A program made the position numbers and the translations under genes. The notes beneath the pieces were generated by a model. It saw nothing but the letters and a program-made list of their open reading frames with translations. It had not been told where the DNA came from and searched no databases. Of a stretch of DNA of 64,000 nucleotides, positions 8,940 to 25,099 are shown in pieces; position 1 is the stretch's first letter, and every line of letters starts with the position of its first letter. The DNA is from Escherichia coli. GTDB lineage: Bacteria > Pseudomonadota > Gammaproteobacteria > Enterobacterales > Enterobacteriaceae. Where the stretch lies: assembly GCF_041248615.1 (NCBI RefSeq), contig NZ_CP158426.1. The stretch is one strand, 5' to 3'.

Positions 8940-10199
8940 ATGCTGGTATCTAACTATAATTATGTAATCAGCCGTCGTCGTTTACTGCAAGGTGCGGGCG
9001 CCATGTGGCTATTGAGCGTAAGTCAGGTCAGCCTGGCTGCGGTCAGCCAGGTCGTGGCGGTACGCGTCTGGCCTGCGTCCAGCTACACCCGCGTGACGGT
9101 AGAATCAAATCGTCAGCTGCAATATAAGCAGTTCGCGTTAAGTAACCCTGAACGTGTGGTGGTGGATATCGAAGATGTAAACCTGAACTCGGTACTCAAG
9201 GGGATGGCGGCACAAATTCGTGCAGACGACCCGTTCATCAAGTCGGCGCGCGTCGGGCAATTTGACCCGCAAACCGTACGCATGGTTTTTGAATTAAAGC
9301 AAAACGTAAAACCGCAGCTGTTTGCCCTTGCGCCGGTCGCCGGGTTTAAAGAGCGTCTGGTGATGGACCTCTATCCGGCCAATGCACAGAATATGCAGGA
9401 CCCGCTGCTGGCGCTGCTGGAGGATTACAACAAAGGCGACCTCGAAAAGCAGGTGCCGCCAGCACAAAGTGGTCCACAACCGGGTAAAGCAGGGCGTGAT
9501 CGTCCGATTGTCATTATGCTTGACCCCGGCCACGGTGGCGAAGACCCCGGTGCGGTGGGGAAATACAAAACACGCGAAAAAGACGTGGTATTGCAAATAG
9601 CTCGCCGTCTGCGCTCTCTGATCGAAAAAGAGGGTAATATGAAGGTGTACATGACGCGCAATGAAGACATCTTCATTCCGTTGCAAGTGCGTGTAGCAAA
9701 AGCACAGAAACAACGTGCTGACCTTTTTGTTTCTATCCATGCTGATGCCTTTACCAGTCGCCAGCCGAGCGGTTCTTCCGTGTTTGCGCTTTCGACCAAA
9801 GGCGCGACAAGTACTGCGGCAAAATATCTGGCACAAACCCAGAACGCCTCGGACTTGATTGGCGGCGTGAGCAAAAGCGGTGACCGCTATGTCGACCACA
9901 CCATGTTCGATATGGTGCAGTCTCTGACCATTGCCGACAGCCTGAAGTTGGGTAAAGCGGTGCTGAATAAGCTCGGTAAAATCAACAAGCTGCATAAAAA
10001 TCAGGTTGAACAGGCCGGGTTTGCCGTGCTGAAAGCACCTGATATTCCCTCCATTCTGGTCGAAACGGCGTTTATCAGTAACGTTGAGGAAGAGCGCAAA
10101 CTGAAAACGGCAAGATTCCAACAACAAGTGGCAGAATCTATCCTAGAGGGAATTAAAGAGTATTTTTCGGATATAGACGCGTTAGCGAGAAAAGCATAA
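8940..10199 (+). CDS. AmiC-like Tat-exported N-acetylmuramoyl-L-alanine amidase (AMIN + amidase_3 domains)
   Basis: 419 aa; twin-arginine signal [19 protein letters not shown]-like N-domain; amidase_3 core MLDPGHGG...; sits in AT-rich island DNA, not between argA and recD. Confidence 0.75.
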
Positions 10200-18172: not shown

Positions 18173-18226
18173 AGTCAGAGGCGCTCAAAGTAGAAATATA
18201 TTTCAGAGGGAATGTATCATAATGTA

Positions 18227-18511
18227 CTAGTGGTTCTTTGATGGTATATCAAAAATGTTTGTGTGAACTGTATAACAGCCCTCCAGTAGTGATGCTAGCC
18301 ATTTGAAAGATTTCTGCTGTTCTGAAGACCATCTGGAATTATTTGATTCAAAATGAATGAATGCCAGTATTTGTATCATCTGTTCCTTAGGAAGCGATGA
18401 AGCCAGATATGAAAATGCAACCGTGAGAGCATTCATGTCGTCTCGAAGCATTGACATGTACTCGAGTAATTCCTGCAGAGTAATTGTTCTATTGTCCATA
18501 AAACTCCTCAT
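18227..18511 (-). CDS. Hypothetical small protein (~90 aa), divergent from iha
   Basis: ORF with downstream hairpin; no recognisable family. Confidence 0.35.
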   Translation of the reverse strand: MRSFMDNRTITLQELLEYMSMLRDDMNALTVAFSYLASSLPKEQMIQILAFIHFESNNSRWSSEQQKSFKWLASLLEGCYTVHTNIFDIPSKNH

Positions 18512-18755
18512 TATTAATTATATTCACCTGTCTGATGTACGAAATATCCGATAGTGTATGATTAACATATCCAAGGACAAGAAACTGATAAAGATTGGAT
18601 AAATACCCATAGTGCAAAAATCCGATATGGATCGTCAACGATTGCTATCCGTTACTTTCCCCTAGAGAAAAGAACGTCCTCAACTGAAATTCGGGGTATA
18701 GTAGAACCTTATGTAATATTTTGTAATTTTTTGCTTTTTTATGTAAAAACCAAAA

Positions 18756-18774
18756 GCAAATCATTCTCATTATC
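18756..18774 (+). promoter_or_regulatory. Fur-box-like sequence upstream of iha
   Basis: GCAAATCATTCTCATTATC resembles the Fur consensus GATAATGATAATCATTATC; lies ~50 bp upstream of the iha start. Confidence 0.5.
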
Positions 18775-18823
18775 TCTTGCGTTTGTTTATCTTCTCTCTG
18801 ATTAATATAATCGGAGAGAAGAT

Positions 18824-20911
18824 ATGCGAGTAACCACTCTGGCTTCAGTAGCCATCCCTTGTCTCGGGTTTTCAGTCAGCAGTATGGCTGCGGAAGATGT
18901 GATGGTAGTCACGGCGTCTGGCTATGAAAAAAAATTAACCAGTGCAGCTGCGAGTGTTTCAGTGATCAGCCAGGAGGATTTGCGATCCAGCCAGTATCAT
19001 GATCTGGGGGAGGCACTGAGATCCGTAGAGGGGGTGGATGTTGAAAGCGGTACGGGTAAAACAGGTGGGCTGGAAATCAGCATCCGCGGAATGCCTGCCA
19101 GTTATACGCTGATACTGATCGATGGTGTCCGTCAGGGCGGGAGCAGTGACGTAACCCCAAACGGTTATGCTGCCATGAATACGGGTTTTATGCCACCTCT
19201 GGCCGCCATCGAACGTATTGAGATTATCAGGGGCCCCATGTCCACTCTGTACGGCTCTGATGCCATGGGGGGCGTGGTGAATATCATCACCAAAAAGAAT
19301 GCAGACAAATGGCGCTCTTCGGTTAATGCCGGGCTGAACCTGCAGGAAAGTAACAAATGGGGGAACAGCAGCCAGTTTAATTTCTGGAGCAGCGGTCCCC
19401 TTGTGGATGATTCACTCAGCCTTCAGGTACGTGGCAGCACACAGCAGCGTCAGGGCTCATCGGTCACATCACTGAGCGACACCTCAGCTACGCGTATCCC
19501 TTATCCCACGGAATCACAGAATTATAATGCAGGTGGTCGTCTTGACTGGAAAGCGACGGACAAGGATGTACTCTGGATTGATATGGATATCGCCCGGCAG
19601 CGTTATGATAACCGAGATGGCCAGCTGGGCAGTCTGACGGGCGGTTATGATCGCACCCTGCGCTATGAGCGTAATAAAATTTCAGCAGGCTATGATCATA
19701 CATTCACCTTCGGAGCCTGGAAGTCATCCCTGAACTGGAATGAGACGGAAAATAAAGGCCGTCAGCTTGTACGTAGCGTACTGCAGCGTGATAAATGGGG
19801 GCTTGCCGGCCAGCCGAGGGAGCTTAAGGAGTCGAATCTTATCCTGAGCTCATTACTGTTTGCACCTCTGGGGGAATCACACAAGGTTACCGTCGGTGGT
19901 GAGTATCAGAACTCCTCCATGAAAGACGGGGTTGTTCTCGCCAGTACTGGTGAAACCTTCCGTCAGAAAAGCTGGTCGGCATTTGTTGAGGATGAGTGGT
20001 ATATCACGGATGCATTTGCACTGACTGCGGGTAGCCGCTATGAACGCTATGAGGTGTTCGGAGGACACTTCAGTCCCCGGGCATATATGGTCTGGGATGT
20101 GACTGATGCGTGGACGCTGAAAGGTGGGGTGACCACGGGATATAAGGCGCCCAGCATGGGGCAGTTACATAAGGGGATCAGCGGTGTGTCCGGTCAGGGG
20201 CGTACGAATCTTCTCGGTAACCCGGACCTGAAGCCGGAGGAGAGTGTCAGTTATGAAGCGGGCGTGTATTACGATAATCATGCCGGTCTGAACGCCAATA
20301 TCACGGGCTTTATGACAGAATTCTCCAACAAGATCGTATCTTATTCCATTGATGATAATACCCGCAGCTACACAAACAGCGGAAAGGCTAGGACTCAGGG
20401 CGTGGAATTTGCCGGCACACTGCCTCTGTTGTCAGAGGATGTGACTCTGTCTCTGAATTATACCTGGACGCAGAGTGAACAACGGGATGGGGATAATAAA
20501 GGTGCACCACTGAGTTACACCCCTGAGCATATGGTGAATGCGAAACTGAACTGGCAGATTACTGAAGAGGTGACATCATGGCTGGGTGCCCGTTACCGCG
20601 GGAAAACGCCACGTTTCACCCAGAATTATTCGTCACTCTCAGCTGTACAGAAGAAAGTGTATGATGAGAAAGGTGAATATCTGAAAGCCTGGACGGTACT
20701 GGATGCGGGCATGTCGTGGAAAGTGACGGATGCACTGATGCTGAATGCAGCGGTGAATAATGTGCTTAACAAGGATTACAGTGACGTAAGTCTGTATCGT
20801 GCCGGCAGTGGTACGCTTTATGCGGGTGATTACTTCCAGACGGGGGCATCGACAACGGGTTATGTGATACCTGAGAGAAATTACTGGATGTCGCTGAACT
20901 ATCAGTTCTGA
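18824..20911 (+). CDS. iha: Iha, IrgA-homologue adhesin / TonB-dependent catecholate siderophore receptor
   Basis: 695-aa outer-membrane protein with signal peptide, TonB-dependent receptor plug and barrel, C-terminal ...NYWMSLNYQF; matches recalled Iha. Confidence 0.8.
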   Translation: MRVTTLASVAIPCLGFSVSSMAAEDVMVVTASGYEKKLTSAAASVSVISQEDLRSSQYHDLGEALRSVEGVDVESGTGKTGGLEISIRGMPASYTLILIDGVRQGGSSDVTPNGYAAMNTGFMPPLAAIERIEIIRGPMSTLYGSDAMGGVVNIITKKNADKWRSSVNAGLNLQESNKWGNSSQFNFWSSGPLVDDSLSLQVRGSTQQRQGSSVTSLSDTSATRIPYPTESQNYNAGGRLDWKATDKDVLWIDMDIARQRYDNRDGQLGSLTGGYDRTLRYERNKISAGYDHTFTFGAWKSSLNWNETENKGRQLVRSVLQRDKWGLAGQPRELKESNLILSSLLFAPLGESHKVTVGGEYQNSSMKDGVVLASTGETFRQKSWSAFVEDEWYITDAFALTAGSRYERYEVFGGHFSPRAYMVWDVTDAWTLKGGVTTGYKAPSMGQLHKGISGVSGQGRTNLLGNPDLKPEESVSYEAGVYYDNHAGLNANITGFMTEFSNKIVSYSIDDNTRSYTNSGKARTQGVEFAGTLPLLSEDVTLSLNYTWTQSEQRDGDNKGAPLSYTPEHMVNAKLNWQITEEVTSWLGARYRGKTPRFTQNYSSLSAVQKKVYDEKGEYLKAWTVLDAGMSWKVTDALMLNAAVNNVLNKDYSDVSLYRAGSGTLYAGDYFQTGASTTGYVIPERNYWMSLNYQF

Positions 20912-21397
20912 TAACAACAAACCCGATATAACGCATTATAATACGTAAAGATGCTGCCTCTGTCACCTGAGGGCAGTGGCAGCAACACACGATGCAGGTG
21001 TTTGATCACCAGTGACCCGCCGTTTACTCCTTTAGTATGGCATACTTCTGTTGTCACCTGTGACCAGGCGCGCGACTCTGTAAACATCCGGATGTATGCG
21101 TTCTTCTGACAGTTAATATTACCGGCAGGTAGTTGACGATGTGTGGGCTTGTGACCGCATCCGGGTAATAAAGAAATAATCCGCCAGCGGCTTTTATTCT
21201 TATGGGCAGTAATTAAATACATCGCCATGTGGGTAAATATAAGTGACGGAATGAGAGTAACAAGTGATGCTGGAATTAAGATTTTGCTTTTTGCAGTGAT
21301 AGCCAGAGCCTTTTACAGAAATGTGGTATGAGGTGCATTTTTTACGCTCACATTATTGTTTTATTATCGGCGTCAACCAGTGATCAGGAGGTGCAAC

Positions 21398-21649
21398 ATG
21401 CGTATATGTGTTTTTGGTTACAAAACATGTCCTTCAGTACACCGGATCATGCATCATGCGACAAATCTCCGGGATGAAACAGGGGCAGATGTCCTCTTTA
21501 TTGATGCTGAGAAACATGGTATCAGTCTGAAGGTAATGTCTGAGCGTGCTGGATGTGCAGTTGAAAAATTCCCCTGTGTTTTTGTTGATGACGTCTATCT
21601 CGAACCACTGCCACCGGTGCCGGGACAACCTCATTATACTTATTGTTGA
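21398..21649 (+). CDS. Hypothetical protein at start of ICE-type gene remnant
   Basis: ORF from MRICVFGYKTCP...; ribosome-binding-like AGGAGG upstream; function unknown. Confidence 0.3.
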   Translation: MRICVFGYKTCPSVHRIMHHATNLRDETGADVLFIDAEKHGISLKVMSERAGCAVEKFPCVFVDDVYLEPLPPVPGQPHYTYC

Positions 21650-21844
21650 AAATCACCACTTGGTATGAATCAGTTCCCCGGCTTTGTGAAAGGCCGGGTA
21701 TAATCACAGACTGTCTGTTATGCTTGGCAGATACACTTCCCCGGATCCCACCGTAATTTTTTAATCCCGTTTTTAATTTATTGCTGATAAATGAGCGCTT
21801 TCTTCGCACGCTGTCAGTCAGATAATATCTGACTGAGGTGTACG

Positions 21845-22240
21845 ATGTACCGGATTTTCTGTTCCCTGTTTTTCCTGCCGCTGGCAGCGTCTGCCGGCAC
21901 AACAATTTATACCGATTCTCAGCATCTTCCCGTTAATCCTCCTGATGGTGTCAGGGTGGTTCTGCTGGATGCGCCTGAGCAGCTTCAGAGCCGCTTTTGG
22001 GGCCTGTTGCCTGCTGATGCGGGTGAGGCTGAATCGGTGGTCAGGGTACGTATGAAGTCTCCCGAATGGCAGACGATGCAGGCGGAACTGGCCGGTCATT
22101 ACCGCGATGTGGCACATGCCTAGTCGCTGGGCGTGAAGAAATACCCTGCCGTGGTGTTTGATGACAGTGAGGTGGTTTACGGCACCATGGATGTGGTGAT
22201 GGCCGGGAAAATCCGTGCTGAGGGAGGAGTGCAGCCATGA
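21845..22240 (+). pseudogene. ICE-type conjugation protein with signal peptide, interrupted by in-frame amber
   Basis: TAG at 22121-22123 within ...HYRDVAHA*SLGVKKYPAVVFDD...; stop overlaps next gene start (ATGA at 22237). Confidence 0.45.
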
Positions 22241-23211
22241 TGTCCCTGAAATGTCGTCTGCGTACCGGCGTGCTGTTACTGAGTGTGGCATCACTGCCCC
22301 TGGCGTCTGTATCACTGAACACCGCCAGCATTATCGCCAGTACTGCGGCACCGGACTATATCAGCTGGCGTGTCAGCGGGATTTGTTACTGGCTTTACTG
22401 CAGCGCGTCTGGCTGTACGGTCAGAATTTCCGTGAAGGTGACACATTTCATCCCGGAAGTGGTTATTTCCACCTATACGGCACCGGGTGGTAATCCCTGG
22501 AAAGAGATGTCGCTGGTCAGCCGGACCGCAGGTGGCCCGGAGAATGCCATCACTGACGGCCTGTCCGGGCTGAGTGCCGGCGGGGGAAATCCGGCGGATA
22601 TGAAAATACAGGGGAAGCGCCGTTCAGCAATTCGTTTCAAATATGCAGATGCGCTGGGTCATCCGGCCACACAGCTTATCGGCGGGATGGTACCCGGATT
22701 CAGCTGTGATTCACCGGTGACACCGGCCATGGCCTATTTCCTCAGTACCCTGGACAGCATCGTCTAGCGAACGGGATTACCTGAATCCCTGTATCCAGAG
22801 GCACAGGTTCCCGGCAAACGCGAGATTGGCAGCTAGGCCGATAAAAACATGTGGGGGAGCGTTTATCACCGGAGTGGTTTTGTGATGCAGAGCGATGATG
22901 ACCGGGCCGCGGCGGTGGGGGCTCAGCGGGTGGCCGACATTATCACGCGGATGGGGGAGTCGCATGTCTACAGGGAGGTTAAGGGCGTGAAACGTGACGG
23001 CTACTGGCCCCCGGAGGCGGTGGAGGAAAACACCGGCACCCGCAATCACAAATGGCAGCGACTGACGCCGTCAGTGTCGCGTTCCTGTGCCGTTTTCCCG
23101 GATGGTGAACACCAGGCGGCGGAGAACGGTAATGCAGCCTTTGCACTGTGGCAGCCTTACAGCTGCTTCGAAAAGCGCGGGCAGCGATTCCTTGGCAGTA
23201 CGAATTTTTAA
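22237..23211 (+). pseudogene. ICE-type conjugation protein (TraU-like?), broken by stop/frameshift near 22767
   Basis: Signal peptide, GICYWLYC motif; continues in ORF 22849-23211 in another frame. Confidence 0.4.
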
Positions 23212-23217
23212 GGAACC

Positions 23218-23960
23218 ATGATGATGAAGATGAAAACAGGTATGGTGGCACTGAGTGTGATGCTGTACTGCAGTATTCCGGCGATGGCTGATCTTCTTTC
23301 CCTGCCGAAACTGAATGACAGCACGTTCGGTTACGGGAAATCCGTGGATGGCGCCGTATCCGACAAACTGTTCTATACGCTGGGTGGCGGCTCGGTGATC
23401 TCACAGTTGGCCACGCGCAGCAACATGCAGAAGCTGGGTATGGACCTGGGCTGGAGCAGCGATCTGATGTGCGGCAACTTTGACCTGAAGACCACGGTGG
23501 GTAATCATCTTAACGGATTGACCGACGGCTTTAAAAATCTGATGGGGGATGTGATTTAGGGGGCGACCGGCGCCGCTGCCAGTCTGCCGGCGATGGTGAT
23601 ACAGCGTGCCAACCCCGGCCTGTACGACATGATCACCAACGGTGTGCTGCAGGCGAATGTGGCTTTCGACAAGGCGTAACTGAACTGCCAGAACATGGCA
23701 AAACGGATGATGGACTTTTCTGATCGCAGCAAATGGACGCAGGCCAGCGATGCTGGAAGAGTACAAGAAGGTGGTGAACAGCGGTGACGGTGATGCGGTG
23801 AAAGGGGACGAGGCCGGACGTCAGGCCACCGGGAAGGAAGGTAAGAAATGGATTGGCGGGCAGCAGCGCGGCGGGGCAGGTCAGCCCGCCATCCGGCCGG
23901 TGCATGATCTGACAGCGGCTGGGTTTAACATGATGAACAGTCTGCCCGTGACCAGTACGG
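23218..23960 (+). pseudogene. ICE-type conjugation protein, frameshifted and 3'-truncated
   Basis: Signal peptide MMMKMKTGMVALSVMLYCSIPAMA; frame shifts after 23559; truncated by the IS2-like remnant. Confidence 0.4.
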
Positions 23961-24577: not shown

Positions 24578-25051
24578 ATGAAAAAAATAAATATTTTAAT
24601 TCTGTGTCTGTTTTCTGGAGCGTCGTGGGCAAGTGACGTAGATAATGTTAAGTGTATTCGGGTAGATAGTAAAGACATTGAAAGGTTATTCGATCGCTGG
24701 AATGAATCATTAAAAACAGGTGATGCCAAGAAGGTTGCTGATAACTATTTAAGTGATGCGATCTTACTGCCCACAGTATCAAAAAAAATTAGGATTACAG
24801 ATGCAGAAAGAGTTGACTATTTTGAGCATTTTTTGAAAAAAAAACCTGTTGGAGAAATAAACTTCAGAACTATTCGCATTGGATGCAATATGGCTCTTGA
24901 TACAGGGAATTACACGTTTACTTTTGAAGATAAAAAACAAGTTTCAGCACGCTATAGTTTCGCTTATGAGTGGGATGGAAAGGATTGGAAAATATCATCC
25001 CATCATTCATCTGTAGTGCCAACAACAGAGCCTGTACATAGATTTGTGTAA
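24578..25051 (+). CDS. Secreted NTF2-like (SnoaL/DUF4440-type) protein; last 7 codons supplied by the IS end
   Basis: Signal peptide MKKINILILCLFSGASWA; native stop TAA now lies at 26351 after the IS insertion, so the C-terminus ...VVPTT is replaced by ...VVPTTEPVHRFV. Confidence 0.5.
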   Translation: MKKINILILCLFSGASWASDVDNVKCIRVDSKDIERLFDRWNESLKTGDAKKVADNYLSDAILLPTVSKKIRITDAERVDYFEHFLKKKPVGEINFRTIRIGCNMALDTGNYTFTFEDKKQVSARYSFAYEWDGKDWKISSHHSSVVPTTEPVHRFV

Positions 25052-25099
25052 TTGCCTGATTTTGATATGTTCAATCCAGCATCAAATGAAGGTTAATTT

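Follow-up and report, generated by a model that had tools for sequence, protein, structure and literature searches.

The iha gene and its product

The largest intact open reading frame (ORF) of a genomic island in the 64-kb stretch of E. coli DNA analysed here (hereafter the window) is iha, which lies at 18824-20911 on the plus strand. The ORF starts with ATG and was translated into 695 amino acids (aa) with zero internal stops. RefSeq annotates it as iha (WP_001266790.1), and the identical protein, also named Iha in RefSeq, occurs on at least 1000 contigs. In the family HMM search, the product scored 1538.7 bits against NCBIfam NF010012 (cutoff 924), with residues 1-695 aligned to profile positions 1-696 of 696, while the runner-up family in the NCBIfam search, CfrA, reached 483.8, under its cutoff of 1200. 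The preliminary description had called the gene full length and had proposed a database comparison of the protein; the end-to-end profile match bore out the former, and the latter upheld the identity as Iha, with 90% aa identity to Iha of O157:H7. The window iha is an already catalogued, divergent subtype of this gene.

The protein is predicted to be a TonB-dependent catecholate-siderophore receptor and adhesin, and the anatomy of a TonB-dependent receptor was present, including a putative signal peptide and TonB box, plug, beta-barrel and a C-terminal aromatic residue. The export and energy-coupling signals were read from the translation of 18824-18916 (plus strand). The N-terminus consists of MRVTTLASVAIPCLGFSVSSMA followed by AEDVMVVTA, with the putative cleavage site between the two; the signal peptide would cover aa 1-22 and is likely cleaved between SMA and AE. 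The TonB box DVMVVTA was read at aa 25-31, and residue 25 is also where the alignment to mature CirA starts in the structure match. In the Pfam search, aa 39-151 matched the Plug domain and aa 221-647 the TonB_dep_Rec barrel, and the chain ends in NYQF, with an aromatic last residue. The nearest solved structure was CirA (2hdf, E = 7e-79). Catecholate TonB-dependent receptors of the CirA, FepA and IrgA type have plug and barrel as in Iha, but they are other equivalog families, and Iha scored far under their cutoffs. To our knowledge, CirA, FepA and IrgA-type receptors are not known as adhesins.

Canonical Iha (IrgA homologue adhesin), known from O157:H7 and from uropathogenic strains of E. coli (WP_001223350.1 and WP_001223344.1), belongs to the same equivalog (NF010012/PRK13486) and has 696 aa, compared with 695 in the window. 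The identity is 90.1-90.4% aa over the full length, and the arrangement of Shine-Dalgarno sequence and ATG is equal. The 68 aa differences extend across signal peptide, plug and barrel, and the signal peptide is one alanine shorter in the window protein. The differences are dispersed and for the most part conservative, clustering no more than mildly at aa 231-260 and 381-410; hypervariable loops that might signal a changed function were considered and rejected on this pattern. Canonical Iha is reported to act as a catecholate siderophore receptor (Leveille 2006; cited in PMC6313751), and Iha of O157:H7 is reported to confer adherence to epithelial cells (Tarr 2000; PMC3064760). By analogy, catecholate siderophore uptake and adhesin activity may be extrapolated to the window Iha; since 68 residues differ from the tested protein, it could have another substrate range or another adhesin activity.

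The predicted Fur operator and promoter of iha

A sequence resembling a Fur box had been reported upstream of iha in the preliminary description. The primary predicted Fur box, found by consensus match and matrix score, is the near-palindromic 19-mer GCAAATCATTCTCATTATC at 18756-18774, that is 68 to 50 nt 5' of the iha ATG, with the core ATTCTCATT. Compared with the classical Fur consensus GATAATGATAATCATTATC, it matched at 14 of 19 positions on the forward strand and 15 of 19 on the reverse strand, and when all positions on both strands of the 64-kb window were compared, a 15/19 match was unique to this 19-mer. A scoring matrix was built here from the best-matching sites of 15 Fur-regulated promoters of K-12, used with no footprint coordinates and therefore leaning towards the consensus. 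With this matrix, the iha site scored 19.2 bits, the top of the window, where the second best site reached 15.2. The training sites of the 15 K-12 promoters scored 9.9-20.9 bits in leave-one-out analysis (median 16.7), which places the iha site in the upper range.

A secondary Fur-like site (18750-18768, 9.1 bits with the Fur matrix) overlaps the primary one with a 6-bp shift, and Fur site clusters have been described as phased by 6 (or 3) bp (PMC2189734). The partner at -6 scored 10.5-11.8 bits in other iha alleles and 12-15 bits in the homologues of Citrobacter and Salmonella. Like the classical E. coli Fur boxes (those of fhuF, gpmA, fur, ryhB, entC and others), the iha site is a 19-bp near-palindrome with a 6-bp-phased partner in the promoter region of an iron-uptake gene, and its score falls in the upper range of sites from known Fur-regulated promoters; binding of Fur to it is predicted. 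In the K-12 scan, the best-scoring sites of the Fur-regulated cirA and fepA promoters start with GCAAA, as does the iha site.

The region upstream of iha is AT-rich (33% G+C), and Fur box predictions made from the consensus only have failed, for example for exbD and ygaC (PMC2189734), so the 19-mer might have arisen by chance in such an intergenic stretch and not bind Fur. Among 2000 dinucleotide-preserving shuffles of 18600-18823, however, none reached 19.2 bits, the maximum being 17.5 and only 1% reaching 15; nor did any of 20 shuffles of the whole window (maximum 18.1). The position of the site is also kept, as a Fur-like site occurred at -68/-70 in all six iha allele classes, with 13.8-19.2 bits and a -6 phased partner in each, and 13 of the 15 core positions (18759-18761, 18763-18771 and 18773) were invariant across the six alleles. 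Strong Fur sites recurred 5' of plasmid homologues in three other genera, whose products share 57-74% aa identity with Iha: Citrobacter (18.9 bits), Salmonella (16.1 bits) and Enterobacter soli (19.2 bits), the last with an upstream 19-mer identical to GCAAATCATTCTCATTATC. By eye, the rest of the upstream region of these three homologues differs.

In addition, experiments on canonical iha have shown repression by iron through Fur, and a Fur box has been described for this gene (Rashid 2006, as cited in PMC6313751 and PMC2671405); iron limitation raises iha transcription, and growth of iha mutants is poor when little iron is present (PMC3064760). A chance origin of the 19-mer is hardly credible against these data, and the earlier claim of a resemblance stands, given a 15/19 match, a score above those of all shuffles and a conserved position. 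We consider the predicted Fur box in front of the window iha convincing from its sequence; Fur binding and an iron response of this allele would be extrapolations. Since the operator is a better Fur match than in the alleles studied so far, it may be a good substrate for binding studies.

A candidate sigma-70 promoter was located by hexamer scan at 18764-18793 on the plus strand, comprising a putative -35 element TTCTCA (18764-18769), an 18-nt spacer and a putative -10 element TATCTT (18788-18793). The candidate -35 element falls within the Fur box, and this was the only hexamer pair with 8/12 matches at an equal position in all six alleles; transcription from it would start near 18800. The rival pair TTGTTT (18783)-17-TATAAT (18806) had 9/12 matches, but transcription from it would start near 18818, inside the ribosome-binding site. 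The Shine-Dalgarno sequence GGAGAG was read at 18813-18818 (plus strand), 5 nt 5' of the ATG, and its GGAGA was identical across all alleles aligned. A standard promoter scan found no plus-strand sigma-70 promoter upstream of iha, and a standard scan found no terminator near iha. The hairpin 3' of the iha stop (about 20951-20985) was rejected as a terminator, because its stability did not exceed that of shuffled sequences (z = -1.3) and it had no U-tract. The Rfam scan of 18200-21800 found no riboswitch or small RNA and gave only far-sub-threshold matches to irrelevant families.

With the conserved candidate -35 element inside the Fur box, the conserved upstream block might be mainly a core promoter, or the target of another regulator, with the Fur resemblance secondary; one example would be the response to short-chain fatty acids that has also been reported for iha expression (PMC6313751). 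Either role is compatible with Fur binding, since Fur sites typically overlap promoters (PMC2189734). Homologues with upstream regions that otherwise look different by eye nevertheless keep high-scoring Fur sites, and promoter conservation alone would not explain such sites 5' of homologues with divergent upstream regions. This argues against the promoter or another regulator as the main cause of the conservation, and we judge that account to be improbable.

The decayed conjugative element and selection on iha

The island part of the window (1-45117) contains 51 annotated CDS, of which 29 are pseudogenes, 7 are intact IS transposase genes and 15 are other intact CDS. The statement that nearly all neighbours of iha are pseudogenes or IS elements was therefore broadly right in view of the pseudogenes and IS genes, but overstated in view of the 15 other intact CDS. 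These include ibrA/ibrB-like genes, amiC, a PhoX family gene, SgcJ/EcaC, cytochrome b562, perC and an integrase gene, and several of the 15 are short fragments. The iron ABC transporter genes of the island have decayed according to the RefSeq annotation. Four small ORFs, 18227-18499 (minus strand), 20902-21228 (minus strand), 21356-21649 (plus strand) and 23221-23559 (plus strand), had zero Pfam domains; of these, 23221-23559 is a truncated remnant of a conjugative element gene.

In E. coli VTB96815v, iha is carried by an intact element of the PFGI-1/SPI-7 type, between a conjugative ATPase gene and TIGR03757. TIGR03757 and TIGR03756 flank iha in both genomes, but the conjugation genes are intact in VTB96815v, whereas the window has lost the upstream part of the element and keeps the downstream genes as pseudogenes. 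Homology between the window and the intact element was limited to 18710-20984, the block common to both iha loci (93.5% identity), and to 21765-23960. Within the latter, TIGR03757 with one internal stop and TIGR03756 with two (together 21845-23211, plus strand) are RefSeq pseudogenes, assessed against the intact copies of VTB96815v, and the gene after TIGR03756 also contains a stop. A tyrosine integrase gene remains at 43930-45117, at the end where the island adjoins ynjA. The tRNA scan for an integration site found none in the 64-kb window, and a complete gene set for conjugation, replication and integration is absent from the island. The island is a decayed integrative conjugative element (ICE) of the PFGI-1/SPI-7/ICEclc type, a remnant and not a functional element.

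Selection on iha was estimated by dN/dS, which came to 0.07-0.08 in comparisons with the canonical alleles and to 0.14 in that with the allele of the intact element. For the same genome pair as the latter, TIGR03757/TIGR03756 gave 0.46, three times the value of iha, along with 3 nonsense mutations in 1.37 kb, compared with none in the 2.09 kb of iha. The non-synonymous and synonymous counts differed between iha and the conjugation genes (Fisher's exact test, p = 0.0008), and the flanking nonsense rate predicts about 4.6 stops for iha, with a probability of about 0.01 for zero. Relative to VTB96815v, the dS of iha was 0.165, twice the 0.079 of the flanking genes. Non-synonymous and synonymous changes in iha were apportioned 15.5:25.5 to the window lineage and 10:28 to the sister lineage. 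The claim that iha is maintained by selection agrees with these values, and iha is under purifying selection as a lineage average; the dN/dS signal is such an average and does not prove selection at the present day.

Intactness alone is weak evidence of selection, since other cargo genes of the island (amiC, PhoX, the ibrAB-like genes and cytochrome b562) are intact as well. The gene could owe its integrity to recency or chance if the IS insertions and deletions happened to miss it. There has been little time for decay, as the 59 genomes with the window allele share at least 99.8% identity across 2.8 kb; dN/dS covers the whole history since divergence, including the time spent in a functional conjugative element; and the ratio of non-synonymous to synonymous changes is somewhat higher in the window lineage than in its sister. 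Such an account has to be set against the contrast with the adjacent conjugation genes in both dN/dS and nonsense mutations, against the decay of the iron ABC transporter genes of the same island, and against an operator that is conserved and, if anything, nearer to the consensus than those of the canonical alleles. Recency or chance without current selection is accordingly an unlikely explanation of the intact gene.

Origin and relatives of the iha cassette

The closest relative of the window iha is the allele of the intact ICE of VTB96815v (WP_024210527.1), with 93.5% nt and 95% aa identity; it shares the promoter, and its Fur-like site at -68 scored 16.4 bits. The canonical iha promoter is homologous, too, and carries its Fur-like site at an equal distance from the ATG, but with 14.9 bits compared with 19.2 in the window. 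The window and canonical genes differ by about 14% nt (about 86% identity), with dS about 0.6. The module common to the canonical loci consists of the CDS together with 88 bp of promoter in front of it and 10 bp behind it. Its megablast/blastn boundaries (query 337-2522, equal to window 18736-20921, plus strand) enclose 84.7-86.1% identity, and the homology stops sharply on both sides. In the window, this module resides in a decayed conjugative element next to ynjA, whereas canonical iha is found in the tellurite-resistance (OI-43/48), pheV or LAA islands or on plasmid pO113. The window allele is rare, occurring in 79 of 5426 complete E. coli genomes, compared with about 1500 that carry canonical iha. 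It comes mostly from poultry isolates, and also from some human ones.

We propose, with high confidence, that iha and its promoter with the Fur operator form a self-contained, horizontally acquired iron-uptake cassette, which has outlived a decayed ICE under purifying selection. When iron is plentiful, Fe2+-Fur dimers of the host would bind the operator at 18750-18774, made up of the strong 19-bp site and the weaker 6-bp-phased site, and would occlude the promoter, whose candidate -35 element lies within the box. When iron is scarce, Fur would leave the operator and iha would be transcribed. The resulting Iha would act as an outer-membrane receptor with signal peptide, TonB box, plug and beta-barrel, in line with the canonical alleles, which import catecholate siderophores and confer adherence. 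The cassette came as cargo within the conjugation gene cluster of a PFGI-1/SPI-7-type ICE next to ynjA. In the lineage that comprises E. coli NRZ14408 along with about 58 further sequenced genomes, IS insertions, deletions and nonsense mutations have broken up this element, while iha and its operator stayed under purifying selection. The identity and integrity of the gene, the statistical strength and conservation of the Fur site, the dN/dS contrast and the origin in a conjugative element are shown by the data; Fur binding, the iron response, the promoter hexamers, the substrate and the adhesin activity of this allele are the predicted parts of this cassette model.

A further and rather doubtful reading is that the window allele represents a fourth, little-noticed iha subtype whose natural vehicle is a PFGI-1/SPI-7-type element. 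Conjugative elements, pathogenicity islands and plasmids would have exchanged the sharply bounded cassette as a unit that brings its own Fur operator, and after its vehicle decayed the cargo would have been domesticated in a lineage known mainly from poultry, but from humans as well. The allele is about 86% identical (nt) to every other iha in the 5426 complete E. coli genomes and belongs to none of the subtypes EDL933, LAA and pO113, whose mutual identity is 91-94%. If this reading were true, the 68 aa differences and the stronger operator might alter the ligand range, the adhesin activity and the tightness of iron control.

In conclusion, the finding has little significance beyond annotation: iha is already recognised as virulence-associated in Shiga-toxin-producing and extraintestinal pathogenic E. 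coli, and control by Fur has been published. With its divergence of about 14%, this allele may escape typing schemes and PCR assays for iha that were designed around the subtypes EDL933, LAA and pO113. The locus also provides a clean example of a cargo gene which, with its own Fur operator, outlives its conjugative element.

Full-length iha gene and its allele subtype

The window was identical at every base to positions 2435672-2499671 of the E. coli NRZ14408 chromosome (NZ_LT599825.1). The iha ORF of 695 codons was located at 18824-20911 on the plus strand, stop codon included, and GGAGAG was read from the sequence 5 nt 5' of the ATG. The span 18756-20911 of the preliminary description starts at base 1 of the predicted Fur box GCAAATCATTCTCATTATC and runs through to the end of the stop codon. 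As that description held, the gene encodes a full-length Iha, since the product aligned end to end with the NCBIfam equivalog NF010012, which names Iha (1538.7 bits, curated cutoff 924), contained two Pfam domains (Plug, aa 39-151; TonB-dependent receptor barrel, aa 221-647), and in translation began with a signal peptide-like segment followed by a TonB box (…SSMA/AEDVMVVTA) and ended in …NYQF. In addition, RefSeq labels the gene iha (WP_001266790.1), and the closest solved structure was CirA (2hdf, E = 7e-79); no solved structure of Iha itself was found in this comparison. The exact protein is named Iha on at least 1000 public contigs.

The database comparison proposed earlier also gave 90% amino acid identity to Iha of O157:H7, with 68 differences scattered over signal peptide, plug and barrel and no hypervariable blocks among them. 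An iha match was present in 1583 of 5426 complete E. coli genomes. Only 59 records carried the window allele at ≥99% identity, mostly from chickens, with some humans, pigs and one raptor, and 20 records were 90-95% relatives. The remaining 1536 records (O157:H7, EC958, pO113-like plasmids, NCTC86 etc.) were only 84.7-86.1% identical, with homology confined to 18736-20921, which is the CDS plus 88 bp of promoter on its 5' side and 10 bp on its 3' side. Since the published subtypes EDL933, LAA and pO113 are 91-94% alike (PMC6920203), the window iha is, by sequence identity, a subtype more distant than these are from one another. It is not the studied allele, and this subtype appears to be without experimental study in the literature.

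Two strains differed upstream of iha. In TUM1886 (NZ_CP128970.1), the T6 run at 18728-18733, just 5' of the Fur box, was shortened to T5, the sole indel in a 2.8-kb region among near-identical genomes. In LR-31 (NZ_AP027520.1), with an identical iha, IS5 was inserted at CTAG (18664-18667), ~157 bp 5' of the ATG and ~90 bp 5' of the Fur box. IS5 insertion 5' of promoters is known to alter the expression of other E. coli genes.

Predicted Fur operator and promoter of iha

The predicted 19-mer Fur box (18756-18774) matched the classical consensus GATAATGATAATCATTATC at 14 of 19 positions forward and 15 of 19 reverse, the single best match on both strands of the whole 64-kb window. A symmetrised 19-bp Fur matrix was built with iterative refinement from 12 K-12 MG1655 genome stretches, with Chen et al. 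2007 (PMC2189734) as the guide to gene list and coordinates, covering the promoters fepA-fes, fepD-entS, fepB, entC, fur, cirA, fhuA, gpmA, tonB, exbB, ryhB, sodA, fecA, fecI and fhuF. With this matrix, which is independent of iha and leans toward the consensus because its training sites are best matches within known Fur-regulated promoters and not footprint coordinates, the iha site scored 19.2 bits (window runner-up 15.2), and the 15 training sites scored 9.9-20.9 bits (median 16.7) in leave-one-out analysis. None of 2000 dinucleotide-preserving shuffles of 18600-18823 (33% GC) attained 19.2 bits (maximum 17.5; 1% attained 15), nor did any of 20 whole-window shuffles. The claimed resemblance to a Fur box was thereby borne out. 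A secondary Fur-like site of 9.1 bits lies at 18750-18768, offset by exactly 6 bp, the phasing reported for Fur site clusters by Chen et al. (PMC2189734).

Of the 15 core positions at 18759-18773 (AAT-ATTCTCATT-T), 13 did not vary among six aligned iha allele classes. The top Fur score fell at the same position in every class, -68 or -70 from the ATG; the other classes reached 13.8-16.4 bits, and in each of them a partner site 6 bp further 5' scored 10.5-11.8 bits. Plasmid-borne, more distant homologues found by tblastn also had Fur-like sites: at -71 (18.9 bits) and -77 (15.1 bits) in Citrobacter freundii (73.5% amino acid identity), at -88 (16.1 bits) and -94 (12.2 bits) in Salmonella Muenchen (59.5%), and in Enterobacter soli (plasmid pENTAS01, 56.8%) the 19-mer GCAAATCATTCTCATTATC itself at -90. 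Outside these sites the upstream regions, inspected by eye and unaligned, look different. Fur-like sites across alleles and genera make a good phylogenetic footprint for a putative Fur operator. On pENTAS01, the hexamer TTGACG, which resembles a -35 well, stands immediately 5' of the 19-mer, and the downstream gene encodes a TonB-dependent receptor.

For canonical iha (the O157:H7 and uropathogenic alleles), published papers report Fur-mediated iron repression (Rashid et al. 2006, as cited in PMC6313751), a Fur box with a 5' polymorphism that changes regulation (PMC2671405), and raised transcription at iron limitation with poor growth of iha mutants at low iron (PMC3064760); Iha of uropathogenic E. 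coli is described there as a catecholate siderophore receptor (PMC6313751; Leveille 2006). By analogy and from the sequence, classical Fur repression of the window iha is most likely: Fe2+-Fur dimers would bind 18750-18774 and would block RNA polymerase. The standard promoter scan called no promoter for iha. In a relaxed scan of all alleles, the only conserved hexamer pair was TTCTCA (18764-18769) and TATCTT (18788-18793), 18 nt apart (8/12), a candidate with its -35 within the Fur box and a predicted start near 18800. The pair TTGTTT-17-TATAAT (18783-18811) scored higher (9/12) and is the less likely promoter, because transcription would begin within the ribosome-binding site. An Rfam scan around iha found no RNA element, and a hairpin 3' of iha was no more stable than shuffles.

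Decayed conjugative element and selection on iha

The island portion (1-45117) ends in a tyrosine integrase adjoining ynjA. Its 51 annotated CDS comprise 29 pseudogenes, 7 intact IS transposase genes and 15 remaining intact ORFs, of which some are short fragments. The picture of neighbours that are nearly all pseudogenes or IS elements was therefore broadly right, but iha did not survive alone: cytochrome b562, perC, amiC, the ibrAB-like genes and a PhoX family gene are intact as well. No tRNA gene was found in the 64-kb window, which excludes a tRNA as integration site on this side.

E. coli VTB96815v carries a 93.5% identical iha within a PFGI-1/SPI-7-type integrative conjugative element that appears intact; there iha is flanked by a conjugative ATPase gene, together with a small ORF, on one side and by TIGR03757/TIGR03756 on the other. 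As this relative indicates, iha and the island remnants originate from such an element, of which the window retains only 18710-20984 (iha) and 21765-23960, the latter with nonsense mutations in its genes.

Several further features of the island were observed. Nothing in the intact element corresponds to the 781 bp at 20985-21764, from the iha module to TIGR03757; its own stretch between the two measures 386 bp. The ORFs 20902-21228 (minus strand) and 21356-21649 (plus strand) gave no Pfam match. ORF 23221-23559, which the annotation gives as intact ("hypothetical protein"), represents the first 112 codons, at the N-terminal end, of a conjugative element protein of 472 aa, ended by a Gln-to-stop change, with more stops and a frameshift downstream. 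Intact ibrA/ibrB-like genes (PAPS reductase-like, IbrB-like), an extra amiC paralogue and the tyrosine integrase lie at 1-759, 8940-10199 and 43930-45117. Two inverted IS1414 copies (IS256-like; 25028-26341 and 32320-33634) flank the PhoX family gene and decayed iron ABC transporter genes, whose permease, ATPase and solute-binding genes (30765-34452) are all frameshifted or truncated; this second iron-uptake function of the island has decayed and iha has not. IS activity is recent and strain-specific, since strain SFE8 lacks both IS1414 copies and carries IS3 at the position of window 21498.

The window and VTB96815v were compared over iha and flanking genes of the same two genomes. In iha, 36.5 differences were non-synonymous and 71.5 synonymous (dN/dS 0.14), with no stop codons, versus 36 and 25 (dN/dS 0.46) and three stop codons in TIGR03757 plus TIGR03756 (Fisher's exact test, p = 0.0008). 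At the flanking-gene nonsense rate, iha should have acquired ~4.6 stops, which puts the probability of none at ~0.01. Against canonical alleles, dN/dS was 0.07-0.08 at dS ~0.6. The low dN/dS and lack of stops relative to the flanking genes support purifying selection on iha during decay of its vehicle, and hence the proposed maintenance by selection, as a lineage average; the 59 near-identical copies diverged too recently for a test of present-day constraint. Between the window and VTB96815v, iha had a dS of 0.165, double the 0.079 of the flanking conjugation genes, and the iha cassette may have had a separate history, e.g. allelic replacement by recombination.

In conclusion, the earlier observation is confirmed and its interpretation supported. 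The finding is ordinary and its overall interest low: a known virulence-associated receptor gene with a known type of regulation and a correct RefSeq annotation. Mildly new are a divergent iha subtype carried on a conjugative element and a predicted Fur site nearer the consensus than those of the studied alleles.
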